DNA of 53,835 nucleotides, taken from assembly GCF_004010195.1 (NCBI RefSeq), contig NC_057757.1:2735813-2789647 (forward strand), in the 5' to 3' direction. The notes beneath the pieces are model-generated. The model was not told where the DNA came from. It saw only the letters and a list, made by a program, of their open reading frames with translations, and ran no database searches. Below, piece after piece: positions 5,968 to 50,656 of the stretch. How positions within the stretch are numbered: the first letter of the stretch is position 1; each line of letters opens with the position of its first letter. This DNA comes from Chiloscyllium plagiosum (Eukaryota). The position numbers were made by a program, and so were the translations under genes.

Positions 5968-6540
5968 AATAGATAGGGTGAACAGCAAAGGCTTTTTCCC
6001 CTAGGATGGGGCAAGTTCAAAATTAGGGAGCATATTTTTGAGGGGAGAAAGATTTAAACAGGACACGAGGGGCAACTTTTTTTAAAAACACAGTGGTTCG
6101 TGTGTGGAATCAACTTCCTGAGGATGTGGGTACGGTTACAACATTTTAAAAGACATTTAGATAAGTTCGTGAATAAGAAAGGTTTGGAGGGATATGGGTC
6201 AAGATTAGAGTGGTGCTGGAAAAGCACAGCAGGTCTGGCAGCATCCGAGGAGCAGGAGAATCGACGTTTTGGGCAAAAGCCCTTCATTAAGAATACAGCT
6301 CTATTCCTGATGAAGGGCTTTTGCCTGAGAACGTCGATTCTCCTGCTCCTCGGATGCTGCCTGACCTGCTGTGCTTTTCCAGCACCACTGTAATCTAGAA
6401 TCTGGTTTCCAGCATCTGCCATCTTCACTTTCACCTTGGAGGGACATGGGCCAGGAGCAGGCAGGTGGGATTGGTTTGGGATTATGGTCAGCATGGACTG
6501 GTTGGGCCGAAGGGTCTGTTTCGGTGCTGGATGACTCCAA
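5968..6540 (+). mobile_element. CR1-type LINE 3' end interrupted by a fold-back element
   Basis: Same 3' motifs as 4270-4680; split at 6202-6435. Confidence 0.8.
6202..6435. mobile_element. Fold-back mini Penelope-like element (family A) with 18-bp TSD
   Basis: About 95-bp inverted arms; TSD TTGGAGGGA(T/C)ATGGG(T/C)CA at 6184-6201 and 6436-6453; CTGATGA box at 6307. Confidence 0.85.
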
Positions 6541-8689
6541 ACCTCTCGGGCGGCAGACATATACTTGGCAGTTAGTGGGTAGGGTTGTCACAACATCACT
6601 TGGCTTTCAAAATGGAACTGGATGAACATTTGAAGGAGGGGGGGGGAGTTGCTGAGATAGAGGGAAGAGGAGGATTATAAATGGATGGCTCTTTGAGCAA
6701 GAGGTCATAGTTTCAGAGTAAAGGGGGCAGCAGATTTCAAACTGAGGAGGAGGAATTATTTCTGTCAAAGCCATGGAATTACACACACTCAGGGAATCGA
6801 CCCCAGGTCCCTGGCACTGTGAGGCAGCAGTGTGATCCACTTCGCCACCCAATCTTTGAAATACTTGAACCAAAGGGAACCCAAATGCAGGACACAATGT
6901 AGTCTGAAAATGATCCTTTATTATTCTGTTACATACTGAAGTACAAAACACATTCAAAATGAAGCAAATATAAATTTCAGGTGTATATAGAGGCAGGTGA
7001 CTATAAAAGTAGGAACTTACATGTGGATTGAGAACGGGCTCATCTGAGGTAGCAGAAACTGTGGCAGTGACCAAGTAGACAAACACGGCCGACATTAACT
7101 CAATGTGAGCACTTTGATTTGAAGACAGGATGTGGGAAGAGAACACAGTTACTGCCAGATGTGAGATATTTACCTCTTACCGACCTGTCTGCTCCTTCGT
7201 GAAGACCTGTGTGTGTGGGCGTGGGTGTAAGAGCCCTCAGAAAGTGTGTGTTACGGAATAGAAGGAAAACAAAAGTCAGGGGGCGTTTGCTAACACACCG
7301 ATTCCCCGGGACAGTGAGCTCCGGGTCAGGAATGACCATACAGCACTATCTTCAATGTTCCTTTACAGCCAGGGTAGGGCACCAGGGAAATCTATGTCCA
7401 CGCAGCACCCTCAGGCTAGGTTAGTGAGCTCCTCTGCTTCAGTTGGGAACTTAACCACTTGGAAAAGCTCATCGACAAAGTGGGCCCAGCAGTGGAGAGA
7501 GGGCACCTGAGGGCAGCAAGTTCGTGGGTCTGGTACAGGTGAGACGGTGGAGGGCTGGAGGTGTAGGTGTTGTTGGTGGGTCTGGTACAGGTGAGACGGT
7601 GGAGGGCTGGAGGTGTAGGTGTTGTTGTTGGGTCAGGTATCGATGTGATGGTGCTGGTCAGCCATTCAAAATGTCGAGGATTAACAGAAGGGTTCACCAC
7701 CCGTGTCATAACAATACTGTATTCAGTAGTATCCTGCATTAAGTAGATATTTAAATTATATTGGAGTGTGTACCTTACACTATAAAACATTAAACTATTT
7801 ACAATTACCCAAAACTAAAATTCTACAAGACAATTACACTCTAGAGTCTAAAATGACTTAAAATATACCACAGAATATATCTGACACTGTCTTTTTTAAA
7901 AATTTGCATTGATAAAGTCCATTTAAAGTAGCAAAACATTGCAAGGTGACTAAAAGGATATTATCAGGCAGTTTAATCCTGAGCCACAAAGGAATATTAG
8001 ACTAGAGATAAAAAGTTTGGCCATAGGTAAAAGTTTATGGTGTTTTCAAGGAGAAAGCAAAAGGTGAATACACGAGAGGTGTACAGAGTTCCAGAGTCTG
8101 GGTGTCAGCAGATGAACCAAGTAGTGTAACTTGATCTTTTAAATAAACTGTGCAAGTAGTAACATGCATCATTTGCTGAAGATCACAAAATATTACACTC
8201 AACTCACTTTTTCAATTGCTCTGAATTACTTTTTCAACAATAGCCTATACAGTTTCATCGTAAATAGTATTGGGAACTTGACACCATGCATTTTCTACTA
8301 AACTCACCATGAACTAGACTATTGGTTTGTGGCACAAGTGTATCCCAAAGGCAGATATTCCTAGATGGGAAGAAAAAGTAATTGTGATAAAAATACTTTG
8401 TATCATCAACTTTCATCTTTCTGTTTTGCAAAAAGGTCAATCAAACTTGTGTGGCTATCATTTGTAGCCAAATCCTGTGCTGTGAACTCAATGTTTCTTT
8501 TAATTAAAAGATAATTGTCAGTGTTTCATTAGTTTCTGAACAGATTTGACCAATAAAAGGGGGAAAAAAAATCCAGACAAGATGTGAAAGAAAATTAGTG
8601 TAGAGAAAACAAATTAGTGTCGAGAAAGAAATGCACAGATAGATTGGAGAATAACCAACTGAAATGTGTAGATACAAAAATCAAAAATA

Positions 8690-10800
8690 TACAGAGATTC
8701 ATAGAGTTGTCACAGTGCAGGTGGACATTCAGCCCATCATGCCTGCATCAGTTATGTGTGCATTTTAACTAAGTGCTTTTCCCCATAGCCAGGCACATTA
8801 TTTAATCAGAAACAATTGTCCAATATTCTATTCGATGGTTCTATAGAACCCACCTCCATCATACTTTCAACCACCGTATTCCACACCTTAACTACTGTGA
8901 AAATGTTTTCTCACCTTGCATTTACTTGTTTTGAAAAACACTTTTAAAATGTGCCCTCTGGCTCTTGATCCATTTAGGAGGGGGAGTGGTTTAAGCCTAT
9001 TCATTCTGTCCAGATTCTTCATGATTTTGCAAACCCCTCTTAGCTGTCTCTCCAAGGTAAAAACAGTACCAACTTCTTCAATCATTCCATAGAACTGAAA
9101 TGTTTCATCCTTGGAATCATTCTCATAAACCTCTTCTGCACTTCACCAATGTATTCACATCCTTCCTGTAGTATGGTACCCAGAACACTACACAATATTA
9201 CAGCTGACATCTAACCAGCGATTCACCAAATTTCAACATAAACACCCTGCTCTGAAACGGTGTCCCTATTTATGAAGCCGAGAATGTTCTATGCTTTATG
9301 AACAATTTTCTCTCGACATGTGCTTCTTACTTTCAAGGTCTTCTGTACTTATACACAGAGGTTGCACACTTTTTGTGCACACTTTTTAGAAAGTTACCCT
9401 TTCCAGGATGGCAGTGAAGTAGCAGGGCTGCTTGCAGGCTCTTGCCCAGGGCTCATCTGCTTCCATCTGCTTTCTTTCTTATTTTTTTCTTTTAATTCTG
9501 CTCTTTTTCTTTTGTTTTTCTTTTTTTAAAAATTTTAATTTTCTTTGGTGGGTTAGTTGGCAGTATCAGTATGGCAGTTAGTGTGCCATGCATTGAGTGG
9601 TGGCAGCTTCTCGACAATCGGAGATGGCAGAGGTAGCAGACGCTTGGTAGGATGGCAGCCTGACTTGGCAGCAGAGCCAGTGATTTCTGGTTTCAGAAGG
9701 CCCAGAGCAAGGACTCCTGGTGTTGGCCAGGTAGTGGCTGCCGCATGGAAGGCTGGGAGTGGGGATTCCTGGTGTCATCAAGGCAGCTGCGGAGCCAGGG
9801 AAATCTGAATGCAGTCATGGTAGGCCCAGAGCAGAGACTCCTGGTCATCTGCAAGGTAGCAGTGGCAGCGGCAACAGAGATTCCAAACGAATCCAAGTTT
9901 TTTTCATGGGACTACTAACTTGATCCCAAGTAATGGTTGCTAGAGGTTCTCCCACTTCGAAAGTTAAATTGACTGGTCATAAATGTTGTGTCAATGTTTT
10001 CAATTCTCCTTATTCCTCATGCACAACCGCCAGAATCCAGACAGATTCCAAAGATAACGGTCACTGCCTCTTCAATTTCCATTCTTGCTTCCTTCAATAT
10101 CCTTTAATGCATCTCATTGGTTTTGGTTTTGATAACTTTTGTAACAAATTCTTCTCATCAATTTTAAACACTTTAGTTATTCCTCCTCAGTCATTGTCAC
10201 CTGGGCACTATTTGCCATTTAGGTAAAGACAGATGCAAAGTGTTTATTTACTACCTCAGAATTTCTCTTCCCTCAAGGTGTCAATCCCTTTCCTGACTCT
10301 ATTCCTACTTGTACAATCCTTTTCTTACTGATATACTTTAAGACGATTCTGGGATTTTTAAAAAATGTTAGTTGCCAGCCTTTATTTATTGTGCCTCCTT
10401 GGCTTATGTTTGTTTTTCCAACTTCCTTCCGAACCATGTGAATTCAGTTTGGTTTGCAAATGTATTTACCATGCAACAATTCAATTTGTATTTCTTTTGT
10501 TATTTTCTAGGGAGTTCAGGATTTGCTTGTCCTACATTTTCTTTGAGGGAATACACCTTGACTGTATCCAAAGCAACTCCTCTTTGAGGGTAACCGGTTG
10601 TTCAGCCATTGTTCCTCCTGCCCGCCTTGGGTTCCAGTTGATCTGACCCAACTCTTGCCCCACTGAAGTCTGTTCTCTACCAGTTGTTCATTCTCATTCT
10701 GGATTGATCATTGTCATTTTCTACCATCTTCCTAAACCTGATCACTCACTTGATCCAAGTGGCTGACTTCATTCCCATAACTGGATCTACCTGCGGCTCT
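8690..10800 (-). mobile_element. Old, degraded CR1-type LINE remnants with a GC-richer insert at about 9410-9900
   Basis: ORF 8888-9085 LERQLRGVCKIMKNLDRMN...RARGHILKV resembles the CR1 ORF2 C-terminus. Confidence 0.55.
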
Positions 10801-10824
10801 TGTTGTAACACAGCTGTAAGAAAT

Positions 10825-12100
10825 TAGGAGAAAGTGAGGAGTGCAGATGGAGCTCAAAGTCAAGAGTGTAGTGTTGGACAAGCACGGCAGGTCAGGCAGC
10901 ATCCGAGCAGCAGGAGAATCGACATTTCAGGCACAGGTCCTTCATCAGGATGAAGCTTGTGGGTTGAGGCTGGGTTTGGAGGGGAAAGGTAGCTGGGAAA
11001 TTGATAGGTGTATGAAAGAGGGGGGAGAAGGTGATAAGTCAGAGGAGGGACTGGTCTGGAGGGCGGTGCGGAGCTGGAGGCTCGAGACTGGGATAATGTG
11101 GGGGAAGGGAAAATGGGGAAGCTGTTGAAACCCACATTTATCCCATGGGGTTGCAGGGTTCCAAGGCAGAATATGAGGTGGTGTTCTTCCTCCAGGCGTT
11201 AGGTGGTAATGGTTTGGCCTTGGAGGCGGCCCAGGACCTGCATGTCCTTGATGGAGTAGGCGGGGGAGTTGAAATGTTCAGCCCTCCGCGATCGTGGAGG
11301 GAGGCGGCCATCTGGGACTTTGAGGTGGAATTGGTCATCTGGGAACAGATTCGGCGAAGTTGGAGGACTTGGGAATAAGGGATGGCGTTTTCACGCGAGG
11401 TAGCTGTGGGAGTCAGTGGTCTTGTAGTATACATCTGTGGTTAGTCGGTCACCAGAGACAATGATGGAGAGGACCAGGAAGGGGAGGGAGGTTTCCAAGA
11501 TGGTCCAGGTGAACTTGAGGTCTGGGCGGAAGGTGTTGGTAAAGTTGATGTACAGTTCAACCTCCTTGTGGGAATACGAGGCGGCACTGATACAGTTAGT
11601 GTAGCAGAGGAACAGGTGGGGGTGGTGCCAGTGTAACTGGACTGTTCCACATATCCAACAAACAGGCAGACATAGCTGGGTCCTCTGCGGGAGCCCATGG
11701 CTACCTCTTTCATTTGGAGGAAGTGGGAGGATTGGAAGGAGAAGTTGTTGAAGGTGAGGACCAGTTCAGCCAGGTGGATGAGGGCATCGGTGGGAGGGTA
11801 CTAGTTGGGACAGCATGAGTGGAAGAAATGGAGGGCTTAGAGATTGATGTGTACAGGGACTGGATGCCCATGTGAAGACGGGGAAACGAAAATCTTGGAG
11901 GAGGTGAAGGGCATGTGTGCTGTCACAAATGTAGGTGGGGAGTTCCTGAGCTAAGGGGGACAGGACAGTGTCGAGGCAGGAAGAGAGGAGTTCAGTGGGA
12001 CAGGCGCAGGCTGAGACAATGGGTGGACTGGGGCAGTCAGGTTTTGAATATTCTGAAGGAGGTAGAATCAGGTAGTGTGGGGTTCACGGACAGGGAGGTT
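10825..12100 (-). mobile_element. Penelope-like element (family A), degraded RT plus endonuclease tail
   Basis: VAMGSRRGPSYVCLFVGYVEQS (RT motif) and AIPYSQVLQLRRICS; frameshifted. Confidence 0.85.
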
Positions 12101-12109
12101 GGAGACTGT

Positions 12110-12495
12110 GGATGTGCAGGAGAATTGACGTTTTGGGCATAAGCCCTTCATGAGACTTGAGGGTTGGGGCGGAGAGATAAATGGGAGGGGAGGTGGGGTT
12201 GGGGAGAAGGCAGCTGGGAAAGATATAGGTGGATTAATGCGAGGGAGAAGGTGATAGGTCAGAGGGGGGAAATGATGGTCAGGGGGGCGGTGTCGTGTTG
12301 GAGGCTTGGGACTGGGATAATGTGGGGGGGAGGGGAAATGAGGAAGCTGCTGAAATCCACATTGATCCCGTGTGGTTGCAGGGTCCCAAGGCGGAATATG
12401 AGGCGTTCCTCCTCCAGGCGTCGGGCGGTAACGGTTTGGTGGTGGAGGCGGCCCAGGGCCTGCTTGACGTTGACAGACTGGGAGGGGGAGTTGGG
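12110..12495 (-). mobile_element. Penelope-like element (family A) 3' fragment
   Basis: RRLEEERLIFRLGTLQPHGINVDFSSF. Confidence 0.85.
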
Positions 12496-14055: not shown

Positions 14056-14887
14056 TTAATAAAAAGCCTGGGCAAATGAGGTATGTCAGGGGAGAGCAGT
14101 CTTTCCACAAATGCATTCCAATTGCTAGAATGGAACAGTGCAATTGTGTCTTCCTGCTCCTGGCTGACCAGGGATTCGGACAGAGCAGGGTCAGAGGGGT
14201 GTTGTCTCTCCCGTCAGAGACAGGCTCAACCAGTCGACTTGGAGGCGAAGGGGTTGGCTCACCTTCGGAGGAGAAGTCTGGCAGATGGACTCATTGGAGC
14301 TTTAGCAATATGAGGGGAGTGATCTTCCTGAAACACCGAGACACTGAGTGGGTTTGACAGGGTGATGGCGGCAGTGGAGTGGGGGGGGCAACTCCGGCCG
14401 GGGGAAGTGACGGAGAACTGGGCCTTCTATTTAAGACCGAGAGGAGGAGGAGGAACTTTGCCCCTCAGAGGGTCATTAGCGTTTGGAATTCTCTCTCTCC
14501 CAGAGAGCAGTGGAGGATGGCTCAGTGAATAGGCTCACGGCTATGTTAGAGAGATGTTGGGTTAACGAGTGTCAGCGTGTGGTTATGACAGGGCCAAGGC
14601 AGCAAAGCGAGGTCACGGCCACATTCAGATCAGACGTGGCTCTTACTGAACCATAGAGCAGGCTCAAGGGGGTTGAACAAGCTAACGCTGCTTCTGTTGT
14701 GTGGATGGACTGAGAGGAGGGAGATTTAAGTATCTTTCTCCCCTATCTCCCCAAAAGGTAGAGTCAGTGATGGCGGAGCAACCCTTTCTCCCTAATCCTG
14801 AAGACATTTCCAAAAAGAGATTTTTGTTTTTTGAGCGAGTGCCCAACAGGCTAAGCCACCTGGGATAGCTGACATTGAAGTTAACAG

Positions 14888-15100
14888 CTGGAAATGTGTT
14901 GCTGGAAAAGCGCAGCAGGTCAGGCAGCATCCAGGGAACAGGAGAATCAACGTTTCGGGCATAAGCCCTTCTTCAGGAAGAAGGGCTTATGCCCGAAACG
15001 TCGATTCTCCTGTTCCCTGGATGCTGCCTGACCTGCTGCGCTTTTCCAGCAACACATTTCCAGCTCTGATCTCCAGCATCTGCAGACCTCACTTTCTCCT
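14888..15100. mobile_element. Fold-back mini Penelope-like element (family A) with 15-bp TSD
   Basis: Near-perfect inverted arms of about 85 bp; TSD CATTGAAGTTAACAG at 14873-14887 and 15101-15115. Confidence 0.9.
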
Positions 15101-15239
15101 CATTGAAGTTAACAGACAAACCCTGCTGCAATGCAGCTGACTGCTACGTTCATTAATCTCAACACTCAGCCAACGTCAAATGGTACAACTTGGTAAAATC
15201 ATAAAAACGCAAAGACAAAAGGGCTGCTGACAGAGACTA

Positions 15240-15795: not shown

Positions 15796-16919
15796 AAGGT
15801 GCTCATTCCTCACAATTGGGTCAAATGCTGGCAACTGGGACTGGATTAATTTAGGATATCTGGTCAGCATGGACGAGTTGGCCAGAAGGGTCTGTTTCTG
15901 TGCTGTATGACTAAGTTGACCAGCAGCTACAATTGCAAGTTGAAAAAGGCCGATTCCTAACGCATGATCCTTCAGCAACACTACAGAGCTTCTTAACAAC
16001 TGTATCATTTCACCGGAGAGAAGATAAACCAGCTGTGGTCTGACATCGATGTTATCAGTAGGACAGGAAACTGCACACTCTTCTCTCCCAGCCCTTTACA
16101 GACTCGGCTGGGGGTTTTTGGTCAATCCAGTCCAATCCTCTTCACAGTGCTGTTTGTGAAAGTTTCCTTGCCCATCGCACTTTGTGGACTGCTCCATTCG
16201 GTGGTGGTTGCCACTTGAATACAGCCAGTCAGAAAGTAACACACTCGCTCTTGAGTGATGCGTTACAGCTAAGGAGAAATGAGTCAGGCCCACAGCCCAG
16301 CAAGGGGGGGGGGCCGACACAGAGAAACCCTGGGCTAAACCTCTCAGGTTCAAATCCAACTCCCCCTCCCACCCACATCCCCTCCTCCCACACCATTCCC
16401 TTTTGGGAATTGAAAGTGAGTCTCAGGGACGGTGACCGCACGACAACCATCAGCGATTCTCACCTTGTTCCATTAGGTCCTTCAGGGGAATGAACACTGC
16501 CACCTTTAACCGCTTCTAGCCTACACATGACTCCAGGCCCCACAGCGACATGGAAATGACGGACAGGCAACAGATGCTGGCCTTTCCAACCACACCCATG
16601 GAGGAATCTTTGGAGAAAAATGGTTAATTTGCAAGTTGTGTCAACAGCAGCCACTCTCCACCGCCTTCCCAACAGAGGGGGCGTGCTGGCTGCTAATTCG
16701 GAGAATGAAGTTCAATTGAAAATGGGGATTTAGGACTGAGCTCCTGTTATCTGACCGAAAACCGCAACGGGTTCGATGAGTGTGGGCAGACAGACATCCT
16801 GCTGATTAGAAGTTTAATCAGAGAATTAACCACAGAATCCTGACTCAGTGGAAGCAGGCTATTTGGCCCACTGAGTAAACACCAACAAGCATCCCAACGA
16901 GACCCCACCCTCCCTATCC

Positions 16920-24149: not shown

Positions 24150-25290
24150 TAGAGTCACAGAGATGTACAGCATGGAAACAGACCCTTCGGCCCAACCCGT
24201 CCATGCTGATCAGATATCCTAACCTAATCTGGTCCCATTTGCCAGCACCTGACCCATATCCCTCCAAACCCTTCCTATTCATATACCCATCCAAATGCCT
24301 CTTCAATGTTGTAATTGTACCAGCCCCCTCATAATTTTGTAAACCTCTATAAGGTCACCCCTCAGCCTCCGACGCTCCAGGGAAAACAGCCCCAGCCTGT
24401 TCAGCCTCTCCCTGTAGCTCAGATCCTCCAACCCTGGCAGCATCCTTGTAAATCTTTCCTGAACCCTTTCAAGTTTCATAACATCTTTCTGATAGGAAGC
24501 AGAGCAGAGTCAAAAGGTGTGGTGCTGGGAAAGCACAGCCGGTCAGTCAGCATCCAAGGAGCAGGAGAACCGATGTTTCCTGGTGAAGAGCTTATGCCTG
24601 AAACGTCAATTCTCCTGTTCCTCGGATGCTGCCTGACCTGCTGTGCTTTCCCAGCAACACATTTTTTGACCATGATTATTGAGAAAAACTGAAGCGGTTC
24701 ATTCGGAGAAGGAAATCTGCCATCGTTACCCTCTGGGCAATTGGGATGGACAATAATGTGGGCCCAGCCAGCGACACAGAGATCCTGAGGGTGAATAAAT
24801 GTAATCAATGGGTTGCATATAATTAAAACCAGAGACCAGAATTGACAGGGGAGGCGTGGGGCTGGAGGGCCCTGGGATATGGAGTGTACCACAAGAGGGT
24901 GGGGAGTTTAACACCAGCGTGTTACTTAACACAAGAGCTGCTGTAGGTCATTGAGCATAGGCAACTGGTCGTATGGAGACCACGGAGTCATGATCATACA
25001 GCACGGAAACAGACCCTTCGGCCCAACTCGTCCATGCTGACCAGGTCCCCTAAACTGAACGTGTTCCGTTTGCCTGCGTTTGGCCCCTATCCCTCTAAAC
25101 CTTGCTTTTCCATGTACCTGTCCAAATGCCTTTTAAATGTCATAATTGTACCGGCCTCCACCACTTCCTCTGACAGCTCATTCCATACACGCACCACCCG
25201 CTGAGTGAAAAAGTTGCCCCTTAGGTCCCTTTCCCCTCTCACCTTAAACCTAAGGCCTCTAGTTCTGGACTCCCTCCCCACCCCTGGTGG
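24150..25290 (-). mobile_element. Cluster of CR1-type LINE 3' ends with a fold-back element at about 24505-24668
   Basis: FKRHLDGYMNRKGLEGYG and ESRTRGLRFKVRGE motifs. Confidence 0.75.
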
Positions 25291-32400: not shown

Positions 32401-33227
32401 GAAAAGTGATATTTGGACTTGAATGCACTTGTCCTCCATTTTTAAGTGCACAAGGCAACTGGAAGGACTGTACGGGTCACAACGAGGAGTCCATTGTAAA
32501 GTGTATGACTTCAACCTCAGGCGACTGTGTGGAGTTTGCACATTCTCCCACATGTCTGTGTGGGTTTCCTCCAGGTGCTCTGGTTTCCTCCCACAGTCCA
32601 AAGATGTGCAGGTTAGGGTGGATTGGCCGTGCTGAATTGTCCCATAGTGCCCAGGGATGTGCAGGTTAGGGTGGGTTGGCCGTGCTTATTTGTCCCATAG
32701 TGCCCAGGGATGTGCAGGTTAGGGTGGATTGGTCAGGGGAAATATAAAAGTAATAGAAATACATCTGGGTGGAATACTCTCCAGAGGGTTGGTGTGGACT
32801 TGTTGGGCCAAATGGCCTGTTTCCACACTGTAGCGTTTCTATGACTTGGATCAGTCAGTTTTGCTGCTTCGTTCAGAACGTTGGGAATTAAACCCAAGTC
32901 TTCAGAACATTTGCCAAAACCTCTGGATTAAGATGCAATTCCTCTTAAAACTCAACCACTGAATCAACACAGCTTCTCCAAAGACATACCTTTCTTTGAG
33001 ATTTTTATTCAAACTACAACAACGCAGTACTCAATCCTGAGGTCCCAAATTTCCTTGTAGAGTTATACAACACGGAAACAGACCCTTCAGCTCCACTCGT
33101 CCATGTCGACCGAATACCCTAAACTAACTTAGTCCCCGTTTACCAGCAATCTATCCATCTAAACCCTTCCTATTTCAGTTAAAAATCACACATCATCAGG
33201 TTATAGTCCAACAGGTTTAATTGGAAG

Positions 33228-33262
33228 CACTAGCTTTCGGAGCAACGCTCCTTCATCAGGTG
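33228..33262 (-). ncRNA. Minimal hammerhead ribozyme motif (family B)
   Basis: CAC-CUGAUGA-A-GGAGC-GUU-GCUCC-GAAA-GCUA-GUG. Confidence 0.75.
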
Positions 33263-35597
33263 GTAGCAGAGGGCTCAATCCTAACACAGAATTTATAGCA
33301 AAAATTTACAGTGTGAGGTAATTGAAATTATATATTGAAAAATTGATTGTCTGTTGAGTCTTTCATCTGTTTGAATACCGTGATAGTTTCACTTCTTTCA
33401 TGTGTAAATCACAAAACTTTTTATTAAAAAGTTGCATTCTCAGGTTAGCTGTTAACAATGGTGATAGCTAGACAATACGTTGAAGGTGTTAGCCCCCTGT
33501 GTTCTCTGTCTATGCCATGATGTTTAGATTGATTCTAATCTAAAAAGTGAGATAACAGAGTTTTACATGAATTCATGCAGTTTTTGAGCAAAGTACAATG
33601 TAACCCTGCAAGTACAAATTCACCCCACAAAATATATGTGTGCATGTGGGTCTTTGTCTGTGACTGTGTGTTCTTGTCAAGGTTTGGGGGTTGTGAGTGT
33701 GAGAAAGTGTATGTGTGTGTGTAGCAAGTGTAGAGTGTCTTAAGTCTGTGAGGGGGTGTATGTGTGAGTGTGTGTCTGTAAGGGTGTGTGCGCGCGTCTG
33801 TGTATATGTGTGTCCGTGTGTATAGGAGTGTCTGTGTGTGTGTAGGAGTGTCTGTGTGTGTGCGCAGTGCAATGGTGATCACCTGCAATGTGATATGAAC
33901 CCAAGGTCCCGGTTGAGGCCCTCCCTATGGGTACCGAACTTAGCTATCAGCCTCTGCTCGGCCACTTTTCGCTGCTGCCTGTCCCGAAGTCCACCTTGGA
34001 GGATGGTCACCTGAAGGTCCGAGGCTGAATGTCCTGAACCACTGAAGTGTTCCCCAACTGGGAGGGAACCCTCCTGTCTGTTGATTGTTGTGCGGTGCCC
34101 ATTCATCTGTTGTCGTGGCCTTTGCTCGGTTCCCCCAATGTACCATGCCTCTGGGCATCCTTGCCTGCAACGTATAAGATAGACAACGTTGGCTGAGTCA
34201 CATGAGTACCTGCCATATACAAGGTGGGAGGTGTCCCCACATGTAATGGTAGTATCTACGTCCACACTCTGACACTTCTTGCAGTGCCTACCGTGACAGG
34301 GTTGTATGGAGTTGTCCTGAGAGCTGGGCAGTTCGCTACAAACAATGATCTGTTTGAGGTTTCGCAGTTGTTTAAAGACAAGTAGTGGATGTGTGGGGAA
34401 GGTCTTGGCGAGTGCTCATCCTCATTGATAATGTGTTGCAGGGCACGAAGAACATGGTGTAATTTTTCAGTGCCTGGGACGTACTGAACAACGAAGGGTA
34501 CCCTGTCAGTTGCAGCACGTGTCTGGCTCTTGAGGAGGTCATTACTGTTCCTTGCTGTGGCACGTCGGAAATGGCAGTCGATGAGTTGAGCATCGTACCC
34601 AATTCTTGTGAGGTCATCCTTGAGTACTTCCAGGTGTCCATCATGTTCCTCCTCCTCTGAGCAGATCCGGTGTATGCGTAGGGCTTGTCCATAGGGAATG
34701 GCTGTTTTAATATGTTTTGGGTGGAAGCTGGAGAACTATAGCATTGGGAGGGTGTCTGTGGGTTTGCGGTAGAGTGTGGTGCTGAGGTTTCCGTCCTTGA
34801 TGGAGACGCAGGTGTACATTGGGGAAACCGAGCAAAGGCTGTGACAACGGATGAATGGGCACCGCACAACCACCAACAGACAGGAGGGTTCCCTCCCAGT
34901 TGGGGAACACTTCAGTGGTCCAGGACATTCAGCCTCAGACCTTCAGGTGACCATCCTCCAAGGTGGACTTCGGGACAGGCAGCAGAGGAAAGTGGCCGAG
35001 CAAAGGCTGATAGCTAAGTTCGGTACCCATAGGGAGGGCCTCAACCGGGACCTTGGGTTCATATCACATTGCAGGTGATCACCATTGCATTGCGCACACA
35101 CACACACCCTTTCAGACACACACTCGCACGTACACCCCCTCACAGACTTAAGACAATCTACACACACACACTTTCTCACACTCACAACCCCCAATCCAGA
35201 CAGACAAAGACCCACATGCACACATATATTTTGTGGGGTGAATTTGTACTTGCAGGGTTACATTGTACTTTGCTCAAAAACGGCATGAATTCATGTAAAA
35301 CTCCGTTTTCTCACTTTTTAGATTAGAATCAATCTAAACATCATGGCATAGACAGAGAACACAGGGGGCCAACACCTTCAACGTATTGTCTAGCTATCAC
35401 TCATTATTAACAGCTAACCCGAGAACGCAACTTTTTAAAAAAAGGTTTTGTGATTTACACATGAAAGAAGTGGAACTATCACGGTATTCTAACAGATGAA
35501 AGACTTAACAGACAATCAATTTTTCAATGTATAATTTCAGTTGCATCACTGTAAATTTTTGCTATAAATTCTGTGTGATGATCGAGCCCTCCACTAT

Positions 35598-35632
35598 CAC
35601 CTGATGAAGGAGTGTTGCTCCGAAAGCTAGTG
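35598..35632 (+). ncRNA. Minimal hammerhead ribozyme motif (family B)
   Basis: CAC-CUGAUGA-A-GGAGU-GUU-GCUCC-GAAA-GCUA-GUG. Confidence 0.75.
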
Positions 35633-35784
35633 TGCTTCCAATTAAACCTGTTGGACTATAAGCTGGTGTTGTGAGATTTTTTTAAACTTTATGCTCCCCA
35701 GTCCAACACCAGCATCTCCAAATTGTGCTTCCTATTCACATACCCACCCAGACGCCTTTTAAAGATGTTGTCATTGCACCGAGC

Positions 35785-37170: not shown

Positions 37171-37464
37171 TGACTGCATGTGGTAGTGACCCTACCTCTG
37201 GGCCAGGGGCTTGAGTTCAAGTCTCAGCTGGTGCAGAGAGGGCAAGAACACCTCCAGGATAGTCAATAAGGAAATATCTAAAAACTGGCTCCTTCCAAAA
37301 GTCCTCATTCCTCATGGTCTCGTGCTTTCTCCAGCATTCATAATAATCACAGCTGACTCTCCCTCTCATTGCACCAACAATCTCCATGATCCCTTTAGCT
37401 TTGTGGTGTCAGTTGGCTCAGTGGGCTGAACGCCTGGTTTCTGACATGGTGTATTAGGTTAAAG

Positions 37465-37641
37465 CTTAAAAATGTATTGCTGGAAAAGCGCAGCAGGTCA
37501 GGCAGCATCAAAGGAGAAGGAGAACCGACGTTTCGGGCATAAGATTCTCCTTCTCCTCTGATGCTGCCTGACCTGATGCGCTTTTCCAGCAACACATTTT
37601 TAAGCTCTGATCTCCAGCATCTGCGGTCCTCACTTTCTCCT
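37465..37641. mobile_element. Fold-back mini Penelope-like element with 15-bp TSD
   Basis: TSD TGTATTAGGTTAAAG at 37450-37464 and 37642-37656. Confidence 0.85.
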
Positions 37642-38412
37642 TGTATTAGGTTAAAGTCAATAATTTCTTGCTTTCGGAGCGAGGCTGCTTCATCAGGTAG
37701 CTCTGAAACACAGTGCTTCCAAATAAGCCTGGTAGACTATAACCTGGTGTTCTGTGATTTTTAACTTTGTCCACCCCAGTCCAACACCAGCACCTCCACA
37801 TCATCAATAATTTCTGCCAGTGGCCTGTGGGTTTCAGCTGGGCTACCCCACTCAGTTAGGTCTCCAGTTCCTGATGCAGGGCTATGCCCGAAACGTTGAT
37901 TCTCCTGCACCTCAGATGCTGCCTGACCTGCTGTGCCTTTCCAGCACCACACTCTCGACTTAGTTCTCTAGTGGGCCCTGGAACAGGGCAATGAGCCTGT
38001 GGCTGTTCTGAGGTGCTGGTGATACAGCAAGATGGTGACTCTATTCCTCTGAGGCAGGGGTCTATGGTCAGTCAGCCCACCTCTTCCAGGTCTTGCTGGT
38101 GTAATCTCTCCTCCTCCTGTTACCCACCCTTCAGATCTCCCCATCACCAGTTCCTCATCCCAAAATTTACTAGCTGGGTGAGATGCTTTGCTGACGGTCA
38201 GTGTGGACCCGACGGGCTGAATGACCATGCTGTCAGGTTTCTACCAAGACCTCTCTGGGGCTGACGTCTAATCTGAGGAGCGAGGTGGCTTTTTAATTAG
38301 TAATGGGCGAGATGGGGATCAGGACAGGAAAGTGGCTGAGATGAGATTGTCCGGAGTGGTGCAATCGGCTGGAGCTGGGCTAAAAAGCCTCGTCATGGTT
38401 GTTGTTTTGAAG

Positions 38413-38539
38413 CTGAAAATGTGTTGCTGGAAAAGCGCAGCAGGTCAGGCAGCATCCACGGACTGCTGACCTGCTGCGCTTTTCCAGCAACACGTTTTCA
38501 GCTCTGATCTCCAGCATCTGCAGCCCTCACTTTCTCCTC
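38413..38539. mobile_element. Fold-back mini Penelope-like element with 12-bp TSD
   Basis: TSD GTTGTTTTGAAG at 38401-38412 and 38540-38551. Confidence 0.85.
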
Positions 38540-38699
38540 GTTGTTTTGAAGGCAGGCTGTTTGTGGGACTATATTTTGCCTCGTGTGGGGTTTGTTCAGT
38601 ATTTGATGCACGCTTTGGTGAGAGGGAGTACAGCTGAAGCTCGTGCGCCAGGCCCTTCCACTTGCAGATCTATATCCAACCGAGGGCCATTTCATGAAA

Positions 38700-38867
38700 G
38701 GAGGAGAAAGTGAGGTCCGCAGATGCTGGAGATCAGAGCTGAAAATGTGTTGCTGGAAAAGCACAGCAGGTCAGCAGTCCTGAAGAAGGGCTTATGCCCT
38801 AAACGTCGATTCTCCTGTTCCCTGGATGCTGCCTGACCTGCTGCGCTTCTCCAGCAACACATTTTCA
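38700..38867. mobile_element. Fold-back mini Penelope-like element (tail on the left) with 14-bp TSD
   Basis: TSD GCCATTTCATGAAA at 38686-38699 and 38868-38881. Confidence 0.85.
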
Positions 38868-38899
38868 GCCATTTCATGAAACCCAAACATTCACCCCTT

Positions 38900-41577: not shown

Positions 41578-44225
41578 GTGAGCTTCCCTCTGTTTTAAGC
41601 GCATTTCTGTCTCACTACCCTGTGTTTGCGAGCGTGCATGCGCCGTGCTTGTGTGCTTGCCCCGTGTTTGTGCACGTGTGTTTTTTTGCAGTGTTTTAGT
41701 CAGCTGTCGCATCACAGAGAAGAGACCCTTTGAGTCTCCATCCCACTATCTACACTAGTCCCACTTCCTCATGAGGGGCTCCTGCCTGAGACGTCGATCC
41801 TCCTGCTCCTCAGATGCTGACCTGCTGTATTTTTCCAGCACCACTCTAATCTTGATTCTGATCTCCAGCAGTCCTCACTTTCGCCAAAGCCTTGAATGTT
41901 GTCTTACCCCCAGTGCTCATCCCGTTGCAAGCCTAATCCCTGATGAAGGGCTTATGCCCGAGACGTCGATCCTCCTGCGCCTCAGATGCTGCCTGACCGG
42001 CTGTGCTTTTCCAGCACCACACTCTCGACCCCTCCCATTGCAGTAAAACTTTGTTTTTATTAGCACCTTTTGAACAGGCACCCTTGAAACACTGGCAAAA
42101 ATCATACACCTCTTGTTTCATGAAGTTCGCTGTATTATTCAATCCAATTATTACACGTTTTAAAATTAATCTATCTTGCTGTAAATGTCCTCATTCAATC
42201 AAGCGACCACTCAAGTTGATTTAATTTCGAGTCACTTTCTCCTCAAATGCCACCATCTCTGAGTAGTCAGGCGAGGGTGAGAGTTAGAAGGCTCTCTGTC
42301 AGTAGGTTTTATTTAAGGTGAAGTTGCATTCTTATTTAAGAGATCTATGCTGTAAACAAAGTGTAACAGTGATGTGCACACCCCCTGCATTATGTTTCTG
42401 TTAGTTAGTGAGTGTTTTTACACGTGGACTCTTGGTTATCCACTCCCGGTCCCATAGTTACTGGATAATAAAAAATCCGCTGCAGTTTTATTTCAAACTG
42501 TTGTGAGGTTTCCTGTCTCAACTACCCTTCAGGGCAGTGCGCTCCAGACCCCTGCTACCCTCTGGGTGAGAAAGGTTATCCTGAAATCCCCTGAAAACCA
42601 CCTGTCTTTCACTGTAAGTCCTGCCTCTGTCTTGTGTGGGTGTATATGTACCATCCTGCACTTGTCTGGTTGTGCGGGATCGAGAGTGTGGCGCTGGAAA
42701 AGCACAGCAAATCAGGCAGCAACGGAGGAGCAGGAGAATCGCTGTTTCGTGCATAAGCCTTTCCTGATGAAGGGTCGACGTAACAAGGAATACGAGCGTC
42801 TCTTACCTCAAAGGAGCCAGAACTTGCATTTGCACAGCGCCTGTAATAACATAGTGAAACGCTCGAAGGAGCAGAATTGGACTAAATTTGACTTTGCCCA
42901 CTTAAGGACGAGGAGCACTGGAGGCGTGATGCTGTTAGAGGCAGAATGATAGGAATCGAGAGGCCAGAATAGGTGGAGTTTGGTCATCACTGAGGGCTGT
43001 GGGAGGTCACATAGAAAGGGAGAGTCCAAGCCCTTGGTGTATGTGCGTGAGCGTTAAACTGTTGGTGATGACAGGCTTTCTCCATCAGTCGTTGACCTGC
43101 TGCAGTCCTGTGTGCTATAGGGACACCCACTCAGCGCCGTTAGCGAGGGAGTTCCTGGATTCTGACTCACTGACGCTGAAGCAACGTCGGATACGTTTCC
43201 AAGTCGGGATGGTGAGGGGGCTCGGAGGGGAACTTGCAGGGGGCTGGTGTCCCTGTGTATCTGCTGCCCTCCTCTCTCTCTCTATGTGCTAGAGGTCCCA
43301 GGTTTGGAAAGCTGCAGTCAGAGGAGCCTTATTGAATTTCAGCAGGTGCACCTTGGAGCTAAGGAGCCGAGGGCACAGCCTGAGAATAATGAACGGAGAG
43401 AAGGAGAAACATCTTCAGCCAGAGAGTGGGGAATCGATGCAATTCCCTGCCACTGAAGGCTGTGGAAGCCAGGTCACTGGGTATATTTAAGACGGAGATA
43501 GATAGGTTTCTGGGTATCAAGGGGTTTGAGGGTTATGGGAGAATGGGGTTGAGAAACGTATCAACTATGATTGAATGGCGGGGCAGACTCGATGGGCTGA
43601 ATGGCCTAGTTTCTGCTCCTACGTCTTGTAGATGGCCTGCAGTGCCGCTGCTGAGTGTTGGTGAATGTTAAAGCTGGTCGATGGGGGCTGAATCCAGCGT
43701 CTGAGTTAACTTGCCTTTCACACGTTCTGTCATTCCAGTTTCAGACGGGCCTTACCAGGGAGCTGGACGTGGCCCGTCTGGCTAAAGGGATTGAGGGGTA
43801 CGCAGAGAAAGTGGGAGTGGGATACTGAGGTTGCATGGTCAGCCATGTTTGTGTTGCATGGTGGGGCAGGCTGGAAGGGCTGAATGGCCTACTCCTGCAT
43901 CCGTTTTCAATGTTAACTCTGTACCGGAGGTGGGGGGGGGGCTAATGGGAGGATAGGAAAATCTCGTGTGGTGCTGGAAAAGCACAGCAGGTCAGGCAGC
44001 ATCCGAGGAGCAGGAGGATCGACGTTTCGGCCATAAGCCCTTCCCTGACGAAGCTCCTGTTCCTCGGATGCTGCCTGGCCTGCTGTGCTTTTCCAGCACC
44101 ACACTCTTGACTCTGATCTCCAGCACCTCACTTACTCCCGATGGGATAACCAGCACTGGGGAGTCCTCATGGCCCGGTTAAAGGGGCCTTTTTATCGAAT
44201 GTGGTTTTTGTGTCTCCCCACTCAG

Positions 44226-44312
44226 GATGCCCTGAAGTACATGTACCATGGCAAACGGAAGAAGCTAACGACGGTGGACATCGACTGTGCTCTGAAGCTG
44301 AAAAATGTGGAG
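44226..44312 (+). CDS. TAF6: TAF6 second coding exon (87 nt)
   Basis: [32 protein letters not shown] acceptor, GAG|GTTTGC donor. Confidence 0.95.
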
Positions 44313-44898: not shown

Positions 44899-46255
44899 GG
44901 GGCGGCATGGCGGCTCAGTGGTTAGCGCTGCTGACTCACAGCGCCAGGGACGCGGGTTCAATCCCACCCTCGGGTGACTGGCTGCATGGATTCTCCAGTG
45001 TCTGCGTGGGTTTCCTCCAGATACTCCGGTTTCCTCCCACAGTCCAAACATGTCCAAGTTAGGGTGGATTGGCCGTGCTAAGTGTCCCATAGTGTCCAGG
45101 GATGTGCAGGTTAGTGTGAATTGGCCGTGCTAAATTGTCCCATAGTGCCCAGGGATGTGCAGGTTAGTGTGAATTGGCCGTGCTAAATTGTCCCATAGTG
45201 CCCAGGGATGTGCAGGTTAGTGTGAATTGGCCGTGCTAAATTGTCCCATAGTGCCCAGGGATGTGCAGGTTAGTGTGAATTGGCCGTGCTAAATTGTCCC
45301 ATAGTGCCCAGGGATGTGCAGGTTAGTGTGAATTGGCCGTGCTAAATTGTCCCATAGTGCCCAGGGATGTGCAGGTTAGTGTGAATTGGCCGTGCTAAAT
45401 TGTCCCATAGTGCCCAGGGATGTGCAGGTTAGTGTGAATTGGCCGTGCTAAATTGTCCCATAGTGCCCAGGGATGTGCAGGTTAGTGTGAATTGGCCGTG
45501 CTAAATTGTCCCATAGTGCCCAGGGATGTGCAGGTTAGTGTGAATTGGCCGTGCTAAATTGTCCCATAGTGTCCAGGGATGTGCAGGTTAGTGTGAATTG
45601 GCCGTGCTAAATTGTCCCATAGTGTCCAGGGATGTGCAGGTTAGTGTNNNNNNNNNNNNNNNNNNNNNNNNNNNNNNNNNNNNNNNNNNNNNNNNNNNNN
45701 NNNNNNNNNNNNNNNNNNNNNNNNNNNNNNNNNNNNNNNNNNNNNNNNNNNNNNNNNNNNNNNNNNNNNNNNNNNNNNNNNNNNNNNNNNNNNNNNNNNN
45801 NNNNNNNNNNNNNNNNNNNNNNNNNNNNNNNNNNNNNNNNNNNNNNNNNNNNNNNNNNNNNNNNNNNNNNNNNNNNNNNNNNNNNNNNNNNNNNNNNNNN
45901 NNNNNNNNNNNNNNNNNNNNNNNNNNNNNNNNNNNNNNNNNNNNNNNNNNNNNNNNNNNNNNNNNNNNNNNNNNNNNNNNNNNNNNNNNNNNNNNNNNNN
46001 NNNNNNNNNNNNNNNNNNNNNNNNNNNNNNNNNNNNNNNNNNNNNNNNNNNNNNNNNNNNNNNNNNNNNNNNNNNNNNNNNNNNNNNNNNNCGTGCTAAA
46101 TTGTCCCATAGTACCCAGGGGTGTGCAGGTTATGGTGGATTGGCCATGGGAAATGCCGGGGTAGGGCGGTGGGTCTGGATGGGATGGTCTGCAGAAGGTC
46201 AGTGTTGACTCAGTGGACCAAATGGGCAGCTTCCACTCTGTAGGAATTCTATTCT
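44899..46255 (+). repeat. V-SINE with internal 53-bp array spanning a 444-N gap (45648-46091)
   Basis: At least 10 units of GGATGTGCAGGTTAGTGTGAATTGGCCGTGCTAAATTGTCCCATAGTGCCCAG. Confidence 0.9.
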
Positions 46256-49118: not shown

Positions 49119-49175
49119 CTCACTGGCTCAGTATAGAGGGAATCCAACCTGCCATCCCAGAGAATCCACCGCCCG
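49119..49175 (+). CDS. TAF6: TAF6 fourth coding exon (57 nt); downstream exons not found in the window
   Basis: (A)[18 protein letters not shown]; long pyrimidine tract plus CAG acceptor, G|GTAAGC donor. Confidence 0.97.
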
Positions 49176-49552
49176 GTAAGCTTCGGCAATGTCTGCTGTC
49201 TCATTTCTGATCCCAACGGTGTTCCACAGGGATATATACTGTCTCCATTTCTGTCTGTAATCAGTGATCTAGATGAAAACGTAGAAGGCCTGGTTAGTGT
49301 GTTTGCAGATGGCGCCAAGGTTGGTGGTACAGTGGGCAGGGAAGAACAGTATCCAGGATTACAAAGTCATCATGACCAGTTGGGTTAATGGGCGGAGGAG
49401 TGGCGAATGGAGTTTAATTTGGATAAATGGGAGGGCAGAACTTACCCAATTAAAAGTAGGGTTCTGGGGAGTGTTGTACAACAGAAAGACCTGGGGATTG
49501 AGGTACATAGTTATTTGAAATTTACATTATAGTAGACATCGGTTAAGAAGAT

Positions 49553-50030
49553 GTCAAGAGTGTGTTGCTGGAAAAGTACAGCAGGTCTGGCAGCATCCGA
49601 GGAGCAGGAGGATTGACATTTCGGGCATATTCCCTTCATCAGGAATGAGGCTCCTGGGCCAGGGGCTGAGAGATAAATGGGGAGGGGGTGGGGATACGAT
49701 GGGAGGTAGCTGAGAAAGCGATAGGTGGATGAAGGTGAGGGAGGAATTGGTAGGTCAAAGGGGGCAGTGATGGACGGGTCCGGAGGGCGGTGCTGAGTTG
49801 GAGGCTTGGGACTGGGATAATATGGGGGGGAGGGGAAATGAGGAAGCTGCTGAAATCCACATTGATCCCGTGTGGTTGCAGGGTCCCAAGGCGGAATATG
49901 AGGCGTTCCTCCTCCAGGCGTCGGGCGGTAGCGGTTTGGCGGGGGAGGAGGCCCAGGACCTGCATGTCCTTGACGGAGTGGGAGGGGGGTGTTGAAGTGT
50001 TCAGCCACAGGGCAGTGGGGTTGGTGGGCG
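49553..50030 (-). mobile_element. Penelope-like element (family A) 3' end
   Basis: PVAEHFN...MQVLGLL...RRLEEERLIFRLGTLQPHGINVDF; hammerhead remnant at about 49611-49645. Confidence 0.85.
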
Positions 50031-50319
50031 TGAAGCCTCATTGAAGAAGTTGTCCTTCTCTCTCTAGAAAAAAAAGACTTTCTCCTAGCTGGTTACAAAG
50101 ATGTTTAGTACATTTGCCTTCATTGCTCCTACCTGTTGAGATGGTGGTGTTGGACCAGGGTGGGCAAGGCCAGAAGTCTCATAACGCCAACAGGTTTATT
50201 TGAAATCACCTGAGGAAAGGGCAGTACTCTGAAAGCTTGTGATTTCAAGTAAACCTATTGGACTGTAACCTGGTGTTGTCAGACCTGTTGAGTATAGGTG
50301 TGTATCCAATTCTGTCCAG

Positions 50320-50528
50320 ATTAGAGTGGTGCTGGAAATGCACAGCAGGTCAGGCAACATCCGAGGAGCAGGAGAATTGACGTTTCTGCCTCTATTCCTG
50401 ATGAAGGGCTTTTGCCCGAAACGTTGATTCTCCTGCTCCTCGGATGCTGCCTGACCTGCTGTGCTTTTCCAGCACCACTCTAATCTAGACTCTGGTTTCC
50501 AGCATCTGCAGTCCTTGTTTTTACCCAG
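50320..50528. mobile_element. Fold-back mini Penelope-like element with 15-bp TSD and hammerhead core
   Basis: TSD TCCAATTCTGTCCAG at 50305-50319 and 50529-50543; CUGAUGA-A-GGGC-UUUU-GCCC-GAAAC-GUU at 50398-50425. Confidence 0.9.
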
Positions 50529-50656
50529 TCCAATTCTGTCCAGCCATGCGATAGGAAGGATATTATTATACTGAAGAGGGTTCAAGGTTTGTGCGAAGAT
50601 TTGTAGCTCGGGTGCTCGTTGTTGTGGTTCTGTTCGCCGAGCTGGGAATTTGTGTT

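Follow-up and report, generated by a model that had tools for sequence, protein, structure and literature searches.

Short fold-back insertions made of the 3' end of a Penelope-like element in the shark Chiloscyllium plagiosum, and their probable origin

How can a retroelement leave behind insertions of only 127-234 bp that consist of two inverted copies of its own end, enclosed by target site duplications (TSDs)? The question is raised by a stretch of Chiloscyllium plagiosum DNA (NC_057757.1 of assembly GCF_004010195.1, positions 2,735,813-2,789,647, forward strand), the whole 53,835 nt of which we call the window. An initial annotation had listed at least six such fold-backs and had explained them as extremely truncated retrotranspositions of a Penelope-like element (PLE), each independent and with priming on both strands of the target, or, alternatively, as retrozyme-like RNAs. 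All six were found in place (bounds include the TSDs):

6184..6453, + strand: fold-back 6202-6435, subfamily A3; 39-nt tail on the right side; TSD of 18 bp with 2 mismatches (6184-6201 / 6436-6453)
14873..15115, + strand: fold-back 14888-15100, subfamily A2; 37-nt tail; TSD of 15 bp, exact (14873-14887 / 15101-15115)
37450..37656, + strand: fold-back 37465-37641, subfamily A2; 37-nt tail; TSD of 15 bp, exact
38401..38551, + strand: fold-back 38413-38539, subfamily A2; 38-nt tail; TSD of 12 bp, exact
38686..38881, - strand: fold-back 38700-38867, subfamily A2; 40-nt tail at the left; TSD of 14 bp, exact (38686-38699 / 38868-38881)
50305..50543, + strand: fold-back 50320-50528, subfamily A3; 44-nt tail; TSD of 15 bp, exact

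Anatomy of the fold-backs

The arms are copies of the 3' end of one PLE family (A): a minimal type I hammerhead, a terminus of about 60 nt and, optionally, a tail of 37-44 nt. They are joined at their 5'-truncated ends, their 3' ends face outward and a TSD stands on both sides. The asymmetric tail of 35-45 nt described in the annotation was present on one side in each of the six, its length shifting with the assignment of a 2-nt microhomology; at the tail-less end a 2-nt microhomology between target and template was seen in 5/6. The TSDs proved as clear as had been claimed, five of them being exact, at 12-15 bp. Among 1500 random pseudo-elements in the window (tandem arrays included), an exact flanking repeat of at least 12 occurred in 15, and one of at least 18 with at most 2 mismatches in 24. 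All six elements form long hairpins (z from -9.7 to -24.2), with none of 200 shuffles equally stable in each case, in agreement with the proposal that they would yield long RNA hairpins if transcribed. The two arms of one element always belonged to the same subfamily (6/6), and in 7 of 16 fold-back arms the best match within the window was the partner arm. Further copies of family A lie in the window together with an insertion of a second PLE family (B):

43960..44140, + strand: fold-back absent from the earlier list, subfamily A1; shortened tail; three-part junction
24509..24670, unstranded: older fold-back absent from the earlier list; arms identical at 56 of 65 positions
10827..12109, - strand: longer broken family-A copy, with a reverse transcriptase (RT) region at 12109-11288
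1378..1830, - strand: longer tail-less family-A copy, ORF end and terminus; degenerate 15-bp TSD
49549..50095, - strand: longer tail-less family-A copy; degenerate 14-bp TSD
33177..35727, unstranded: family-B insertion of 2.5 kb with head-to-head arms

Many copies of the element 3' end are single-arm. A clear TSD was sought at 43960-44140 and none was seen. With the 1378-1830 copy as coordinate reference and positions given relative to the predicted ribozyme cut site, the arms of 24509-24670 reach -8 and -31 with a 3-nt overlap, and neither a TSD nor a clear tail was found there.

Examination of the inner junctions showed that both arms of 6202-6435 stop at about -33 to -36, leaving a loop of nearly nil, and that in 14888-15100 the tail-less arm reaches about -31 and the tail arm starts from about -26 (a by-eye reading of a quasi-palindromic centre); the centres of both elements are near-perfect palindromes. 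The tail-less arm reaches -17 in 37465-37641, where the tail arm starts from +1, the predicted cut site, with a 1-nt overlap, and -8 in 50320-50528, where the tail arm starts from about -38. In 38413-38539 the arms run to +12 and from +22/+26, the entire element lying 3' of the hammerhead, and in 38700-38867 they run to -30 and from +22/+26, a single arm reaching the hammerhead. The statement that most junctions lie in or near the hammerhead is therefore correct for four elements (6202, 14888, 37465 and 50320), but not for 38413 and for one arm only of 38700. The arm reaching further in is the tail-less one in four elements (14888, 37465, 38413 and 38700) and the tail arm in one, the two being equal in the remaining one; the longer arm usually ends at the ribozyme 5' edge. 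We rejected the idea that junctions sit at the ribozyme cut site, as a start at +1 was found in 1 of 16 fold-back arms.

An intact hammerhead core is predicted by descriptor match in 2 of 12 arms, in different elements and never two on one strand (14976-14949, - strand, in 14888-15100; 50398-50425, + strand, in 50320-50528). Rfam returned no hammerhead match up to E=1, its 15 matches being all under the gathering score and mostly microRNA models on the hairpins, and no strong stem-loop was found at the RT start sites (single-arm folds, z 0.17 and -1.75).

Each element had been credited with an internal junction of its own. This holds for the tail-less arms, whose inner junctions differ among the six, but not for the tail arms of 38413 and 38700, which begin at the same base and carry the same small deletion, absent from the other 24 aligned arms; the supposed independence of every insertion is in question for this pair. 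The two elements lie 160 bp apart in inverted orientation, and 9 nt of the tail match body positions +16 to +24 in inverted orientation, next to the point where both elements turn.

Link to a reverse transcriptase and traces in reads

A protein with the Pfam RVT_1 domain above cut-off (P0001) matched 12109-11288 by tblastn with E = 2.7e-52. After this RT region the 10827-12109 copy continues with an internal deletion, a C-terminal ORF remnant, the 3' UTR, hammerhead, terminus and tail. By way of this copy, the terminus of the fold-back arms is physically linked to a PLE-type RT, the label being based on the RT plus the remaining features. Neither a GIY-YIG motif nor a Pfam match to it was found in family A, where only a remnant of the C-terminal end of the ORF is left; the CX2-5CxxC linker region, a feature of the Neptune clade, was absent from family-A copies, and a Cys-rich stretch was seen in family B. 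For a piece of family B the first Atlas hit was a GIY-YIG look-alike (score 0.96, family on 23% of members). Pfam found nothing relevant in 12 ORF pieces of the window (one entered twice), the first homologue search yielded no homologue among 53 candidates, and scans with the terminus pattern found no locus in either viral or metagenome contigs. The family-B arms (33177-34152 and 34804-35688) are identical at 831 of 983 positions; only the right arm is extended, and a TSD remnant of 9 bp is left. Two B-type minis have the same head-to-head build. The build of the fold-backs thus recurs at 2.5 kb in family B, which serves as an internal control.

Empty sites had been proposed as a check on the TSDs. 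In a related species (organism B) 38700-38867 is absent from both runs compared, and the site measures 28 and 29 letters; 23 and 24 are expected with a single TSD copy and 37 and 38 with two, against 205 and 206 in the window. By length, and within 5 letters, the flanks of 38700 are a true TSD made by insertion into a formerly empty site; this test, an empty site with one copy, covers 38700 only. It gave no such result for 37465 (left end present) and 38413 (both ends present), both sites being filled in organism B. As 38413 is present there and 38700 absent, 38413 is the older of the two.

The element has a very high copy number, of the order of 100,000 ends, and 98 in 100 reads run on unlike the window stretch. 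Arm depth rises to 3.8-5.5 million. In DNA run X5 four different fold-back junctions, one with apparently non-templated letters, stood at a depth of 347-402 against about 11-13 for the flanks, which is about 30x single-copy depth. We rejected these junctions as proof that whole units are copied, since an unrelated 1394-nt contig with no element match was equally deep (418 in X5). None of the 15 joints listed was dominant; among them were head-to-tail joints, from the tail end to a -30 start, in 3/3 DNA runs (6-13 contigs per run, depth 110-196). In the 2 in 100 of the poly(A) single-cell RNA run X21 that was read, 0 reads had such joints, a run of this kind being unable to reveal circular RNA, and in 226 RNA reads the tail continues onward (loose end behind 37641). 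As a possible trace of A-to-I editing, A>G plus T>C made up 152 of 508 changed places in X21 against 74 of 335 in X5 (Fisher p 0.014), an excess that falls to p 0.44 against transversions only, in reads from many other copies.

Double priming as the probable mechanism, and its alternatives

We consider it probable, at roughly two chances in three, that one integration event of a PLE with an endonuclease, primed by both target strands, produced each of the non-coding fold-backs. This was one of the two origins first proposed, and it fits both the anatomy and the in-vitro result of PMC11167929. An RT-GIY-YIG protein, probably dimeric, would nick the two target strands 10-18 nt apart, and each 3'-OH would prime cDNA on the element RNA, one at a distal start site, giving the tail arm, and the other about 38 nt upstream, giving the tail-less arm, this second priming often being aided by 2 nt shared with the end of the target. 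Both cDNAs would halt early, at 40-140 nt; the longer would usually stop shortly beyond the hammerhead 5' edge, most likely for want of template, the RNA starting at that point. Head-to-head joining of their 3' ends at a microhomology of 0-3 nt, followed by gap filling, would yield hairpin DNA and a TSD. We infer that the fold-backs are dead-on-arrival by-products rather than self-propagating elements. A tail-less arm longer on the inside, as in 4/6, is expected from two separate cDNAs, and the RNA reads running past the tail are consistent with internal initiation. In vitro, the PLE protein of PAc cuts both strands and extends them, the tail is the distance between two RT starts and a dimer is predicted (PMC11167929), and the standard PLE insertion comprises an inverted 5'-truncated copy, a 30-40-bp tail and a TSD (PMC8557442, PMC3846280).

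Several observations count against double priming. The in-vitro work of PMC11167929 used an element of the Poseidon clade and does not demonstrate that both primings occur in one event; PMC3846280 favours self-priming, with an antisense strand as template. The empty site, judged by length, differs from the prediction by 5 letters, the likeness of the arms could stem from later conversion inside the hairpin, and family A itself lacks a detected GIY-YIG motif. Some fold-back junctions recur at about 30x single-copy depth, and the tail-arm start and deletion common to 38413 and 38700 are not explained by independent formation alone.

A MITE has a fixed short TSD, symmetric terminal inverted repeats and a uniform interior. 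The fold-backs would suit a cut-and-paste DNA element of this kind in being short, very numerous, flanked by TSDs and built of long inverted arms, but their TSDs vary from 12 to 18 bp, a one-sided tail lies outside the inverted arms, the inner ends vary, the arms are a retroelement 3' end and many copies are single-arm. The variable TSD length and asymmetric ends refute this highly improbable origin, and its dismissal in the initial annotation is upheld. The other origin first proposed, a retrozyme-like RNA, is very unlikely; the template would here be a small circle or tandem that spans some 130-140 nt from the 5' edge of the hammerhead to the end of the tail, and one turn of copying would give the -30 boundary. 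Circular templates are proposed in PMC4209133, non-LTR retrozymes are reported from the sole chondrichthyan sampled (bioRxiv 10.64898/2026.07.22.740005) and the head-to-tail joints would suit them, yet template jumping yields identical joints, these were absent from the RNA reads covered in X21, some 5' ends extend into the element's own upstream sequence (41928), none of the window arms runs on into a tail, and the intact cores are too few. A retrozyme would need two or more units in a row on one strand, all with a complete hammerhead, and no such arrangement was found.

Snap-back self-priming, in which a short inverted match lets a cDNA, or an antisense template, turn back on itself and be copied into the second arm, the endonuclease resolving the intermediate to leave a tail on one side, would be the same known PLE class by another chemistry. 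We regard it as unlikely, even though PMC3846280 argues for self-priming from palindromic junctions, PMC8557442 attributes the tail to endonuclease resolution, and the palindromic centres of 6202 and 14888, the subfamily and private variants common to both arms and the 9-nt inverted match beside the 38413/38700 turn all speak for it. A cDNA begun at the tail must give a longer inner tail arm, whereas the tail arm is shorter in 4/6; one begun at the tail-less end is unable to supply a tail, which in vitro equals the stretch that separates the two RT start sites (PMC11167929). Mobilisation in trans of transcribed hairpin RNA by the PLE protein, regenerating the parent junction and founding a small non-autonomous family, is more unlikely still. 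It would account for the junction common to 38413 and 38700 despite their different TSDs and ages, and for the four deep junctions in X5, but these lie about 10,000-fold below arm depth and could all be contained in one amplified segment, as the unmatched contig indicates; local conversion or a junction hot spot is possible for so close and inverted a pair, and precise outer ends require two primings. More tentative than double priming as such, and doubtful overall, is an extended form in which the stubs are in-vivo snapshots of PLE-specific double priming and transcribed hairpins are double-primed again, a subset spreading non-autonomously. A dimeric RT-endonuclease would start at both internal sites of one RNA near its 5' end, and both cDNAs would run off at the hammerhead front edge before being sealed head to head; the complementary cDNAs of a re-primed hairpin would anneal and rebuild the parent junction with exact ends. 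This re-priming is suggested by the 38413/38700 junction and the ~30x junctions.

Relation to known systems and meaning

The fold-backs are the shortest form of the known PLE footprint of an inverted copy with a one-sided tail; the architecture is not new and is mostly ordinary. The L1 retrotransposon offers a parallel in twin priming, where a further cDNA is primed from the other target strand and an inversion joined by microhomology results inside the TSD. L1 inversions copy adjoining, non-overlapping parts of the RNA, whereas both fold-back arms copy the same stretch, so that strand displacement or two RNAs would be needed.

That standard footprint (PMC8557442, PMC3846280) had been overlooked in the initial annotation, which lowers the novelty. 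Complex EN+ PLE insertions described in those papers share the head-to-head truncated inverted copy, the one-sided tail, the TSD, the hammerhead in the terminal repeat and the palindromic junctions; here, in contrast, the arms are only 40-140 nt and without an ORF, the copy number is far higher, and the TSD is 12-18 bp against 8-10 bp in rotifer examples (PMC3846280; PMC8557442). Two RT starts with a 30-40-nt tail between them, two-strand cutting and extension and a predicted dimer are shared with PAc, the Poseidon of Anolis, which belongs to a different family and whose primer and start site are without homology, unlike the 2-nt match seen here in 5/6; no PAc transcripts were found that stop at the cut site of the hammerhead, and head-to-head products lay outside that study (PMC11167929). 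The core boxes, the extra base before helix II, the G-C closing pair and the palindromic 15.2-16.2 without loop 3 agree with the metazoan PLE min-HHR, in whose description motif pairs 100-700 bp apart on opposite strands are mentioned, but helix II has only 4 bp here and the core is lost or mutated in most arms (PMC4209133). Metazoan non-LTR retrozymes are likewise short, non-coding, hammerhead-related and PLE-derived, but form head-to-tail tandems with a type I hammerhead per unit and circular RNAs (PMC7761336; bioRxiv 10.64898/2026.07.22.740005), whereas a fold-back joins its arms head to head and has no more than one intact core. In the literature covered, which included few subscription papers, none was devoted to minimal shark fold-backs or to PLE twin priming, and PMC8557442 calls the formation of PLE inverted repeats and tails unresolved.

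Being abundant, minimal and datable, with readable stagger, starts and junctions, these products are well suited for testing double priming against self-priming, and the junction, stagger and tail statistics of some 100,000 ends could discriminate between published models of PLE integration. The fold-backs could be misannotated as MITEs or as microRNA precursors, as the sub-threshold Rfam matches illustrate, and they constitute a large potential source of long double-stranded RNA.

Fold-back insertions and their target sites

The six fold-back insertions of the initial annotation, whose arms come from a Penelope-like element (PLE, here family A), were all recovered where it had placed them (see table), each with flanking direct repeats (TSDs) of 12-18 bp, an extra 37-44 nt (the tail) on a single arm and a long predicted hairpin (z -9.7 to -24.2), as had been claimed. 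The TSDs are not due to chance, because random pseudo-elements of equal size in the same window were rarely flanked by such repeats (exact repeats of at least 12 in 15 of 1500; at least 18 with up to 2 mismatches in 24 of 1500). In five of the six the end of the TSD matches the element's own continuation at the tail-less end by 2 nt, so that the true stagger is possibly up to 2 nt shorter. The fold-backs depart from the definition of a MITE, in agreement with the view that they are not cut-and-paste elements of that kind.

Fold-backs and related mini-elements in the window. Arm positions are inner ends counted from the predicted hammerhead cut site (14888, 6202, 50320 and 43960 refined by eye); elements are named by start.
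6202-6435, family A: TSD 18 bp with 2 mismatches; tail-less arm -33 to -36, tail arm -36
14888-15100, family A: exact TSD 15 bp; tail-less arm -31, tail arm -26
37465-37641, family A: exact TSD 15 bp; tail-less arm -17, tail arm +1
38413-38539, family A: exact TSD 12 bp; tail-less arm +12, tail arm +22 to +26
38700-38867, family A: exact TSD 14 bp; tail-less arm -30, tail arm +22 to +26
50320-50528, family A: exact TSD 15 bp; tail-less arm -8, tail arm -38
43960-44140, further family A fold-back: no clear TSD; tail-less arm -21, three-part junction including a piece from -29
24509-24670, further family A fold-back: no clear TSD; arms -8 and -31
37669-37803 (37657-37815 with flanks), family B mini-element adjoining 37465: exact TSD 12 bp
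50141-50282 (50131-50292 with flanks), B-related fold-back mini-element just upstream of 50320: exact TSD 10 bp

Alignment of 26 arms yielded three subfamilies, and each of the six elements has both arms from one of them. An arm of subfamily A2 that breaks off where the window stops (53764-53835) is probably another fold-back, and an apparent single arm ending in a short inverted hammerhead piece (42680-42780) may be one with its second arm deleted.

Comparison of positions 36900-39400, covering three of the six elements, with three sets of contigs and a single RNA run provided the empty orthologous site that had been sought as a test of the TSDs. In a related species, one contig per run covers 38518-38699 and picks up again at 38905 or 38906; the intervening stretch has 28 and 29 letters, where 205 and 206 are expected from the window, 23 and 24 from one TSD copy and 37 and 38 from two. 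Judged by length, this is an empty site for 38700, 5 letters longer than one TSD copy predicts; our guess for the excess is that the pyrimidine-rich flank slipped by 5 nt. Contigs of that species enter 38413 from either side and 37465 from the left, and these two elements are therefore older than 38700, whose right end is present in another C. plagiosum sample. Summed depth on the arms reached 3.8-5.5 million in one DNA run (X5) versus about 11-13 on the flanks, which, summed depth being no copy number, gives only an order of magnitude of 100,000 ends. The fold-back feature is real and abundant. A 1394-nt contig at 39170-39340 (depth 418 in X5 versus about 12 for single-copy flanks) marks a multi-copy segment adjoining a GC-rich, promoter-like stretch.

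Other repeats include 53-bp tandem arrays (16813-17430, 20252-21216, 26039-26848, 32529-32846 and 44974-45647) that lie within a SINE-like repeat headed by a tRNA-like portion, with both orientations represented, and, at the start of the window (1-408), a 34-bp tandem array.

Identity of the arms and the inner junctions

The fold-back terminus also ends longer minus-strand copies at 1378, 10827 and 49549, of which the 10827 copy has it in continuity with a broken RT region. Sixty residues of this region matched two uncharacterised bamboo-shark proteins (2 of 15 candidates; E 1.8e-19 and 6.2e-18), both with Pfam RVT_1 above cut-off, and the homologous database protein P0001 aligned back to 12109-11288 (E 2.7e-52). 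No GIY-YIG motif of family A was found in the window; for an ORF piece of family B, the second PLE family here, the first Atlas hit was a GIY-YIG cluster. A minimal-hammerhead descriptor built from features described in PMC4209133 gave six matches in the window, two of them within the six elements; an Rfam search of the window did not recognise the motif as a hammerhead. The ribozyme sets the sense strand, so that the arms meet where they are 5'-truncated, with the 3' ends outward and the tail on only one. The assignment of the fold-backs to PLE integration products is secure, and their architecture is a known PLE kind: an adjoining inverted 5'-truncated copy with a 30-40-bp tail at one end is called PLE-typical in PMC8557442, PMC3846280 describes such units with 8-10-bp TSDs, and PMC8969392 lists identical traits for curators. 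A literature search covering few subscription journals and no supplements returned no paper devoted to minimal fold-backs or PLE twin priming.

At 10827-12493 on the minus strand, a partial tandem has a truncated family A end (12493-12116) that directly adjoins an RT fragment, beyond which come an internal deletion and then a terminus with tail; a TSD looked for there was not found.

The annotation held that the inner junctions differ and mostly fall in or near the hammerhead. The inner ends do vary, with arm overlaps of 0-3 nt, but 38413 and 38700 share their tail-arm start, both 3' of the cut site. Placement of junctions at the cut site was rejected, as only 1 of 16 arms starts there. In six of eight fold-backs the inner end of the longer arm falls between -29 and -40, and all six short copies with a single arm stop at -31 to -42 (placements of 41765 and 42680 being loose); because the hammerhead core begins at -28, this limit is the front edge of the ribozyme. 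In four of the six elements it is the tail-less arm that reaches further inward. Among 15 genome-wide joints listed of 2205 (some uncounted), four different fold-back junctions had depths of 347-402 in X5, none dominant.

Probable priming from both target strands and its rivals

According to PMC11167929, a purified PLE protein, for which dimerisation is predicted, cuts both target strands, extends them and starts reverse transcription at two internal sites whose distance equals the tail; the reaction requires RNA downstream of these sites, and ribozyme cleavage is dispensable. In the light of that account, the simplest reading of the fold-back anatomy is two short cDNAs joined by microhomology. 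Each cDNA would have its own nick and its own start site, on a template RNA that would begin just before the hammerhead, the longer cDNA running off the template's 5' end. We consider such double priming likely (roughly two chances in three). The annotation's truncated retrotransposition primed from both strands fits the anatomy and these in-vitro data, but independent formation would not by itself explain the common junction of 38413 and 38700. The 226 RNA reads running beyond the tail end, with partly shared sequence (agreement 0.48), are in line with internal initiation. All six tails end in a pyrimidine tract; where RNA reads are longer, AG comes next, and the sequence resembles a 3' splice site.

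The main rival, preferred in PMC3846280, is that self-priming makes the inverted arm; tail-first self-priming, however, predicts a longer tail arm, and this prediction fails in four of the six. The annotation's alternative of a retrozyme-like RNA does not fit, as retrozymes require same-strand tandem hammerheads (PMC7761336; bioRxiv 10.64898/2026.07.22.740005), which the fold-backs lack. Joints linking the end of the tail to -30 in head-to-tail order occurred in all three DNA runs (depth 110-196) and in no RNA read among the 2 in 100 of run X21 that were read; such joints are expected both from template jumping and from a circular template. Low-depth joints 37640>38778 and 38538>38778, from tail end to hammerhead 5' edge in both species, raise the possibility that the genome contains short tandem, retrozyme-like units at other places.

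The opposed elements 38413 and 38700 lie 160 bp apart and differ in age, yet their tail arms have an identical starting base and an identical small deletion, which none of the 24 remaining arms in the alignment has. The two might descend from one fold-back source or have been converted locally, or the junction might be a hot spot created where 9 nt of the tail match body positions +16 to +24 in inverted orientation. Some fold-backs could have been copied as units, given fold-back junctions at about 30x, but the 1394-nt contig outside the elements reaches depth 418 in that same run, X5.

Family B as internal control

The 2.5-kb family B element at 33177-35727 has a like build (arms identical at 831 of 983 positions, a one-sided extension and a 9-bp TSD remnant), as do the mini-elements 37669-37803 and 50141-50282, the latter with its extension on the left and an intact hammerhead core at 50210-50238. 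In 37669-37803 the inverted piece is the hammerhead only (37667-37698), without overlap with a sense piece starting near the cut site, and this element more closely resembles the classical form of twin priming, in which the pieces do not overlap. The like build in family B indicates that the pattern is a property of PLE integration rather than of one special element, and the fold-backs are useful as a test set for that process.
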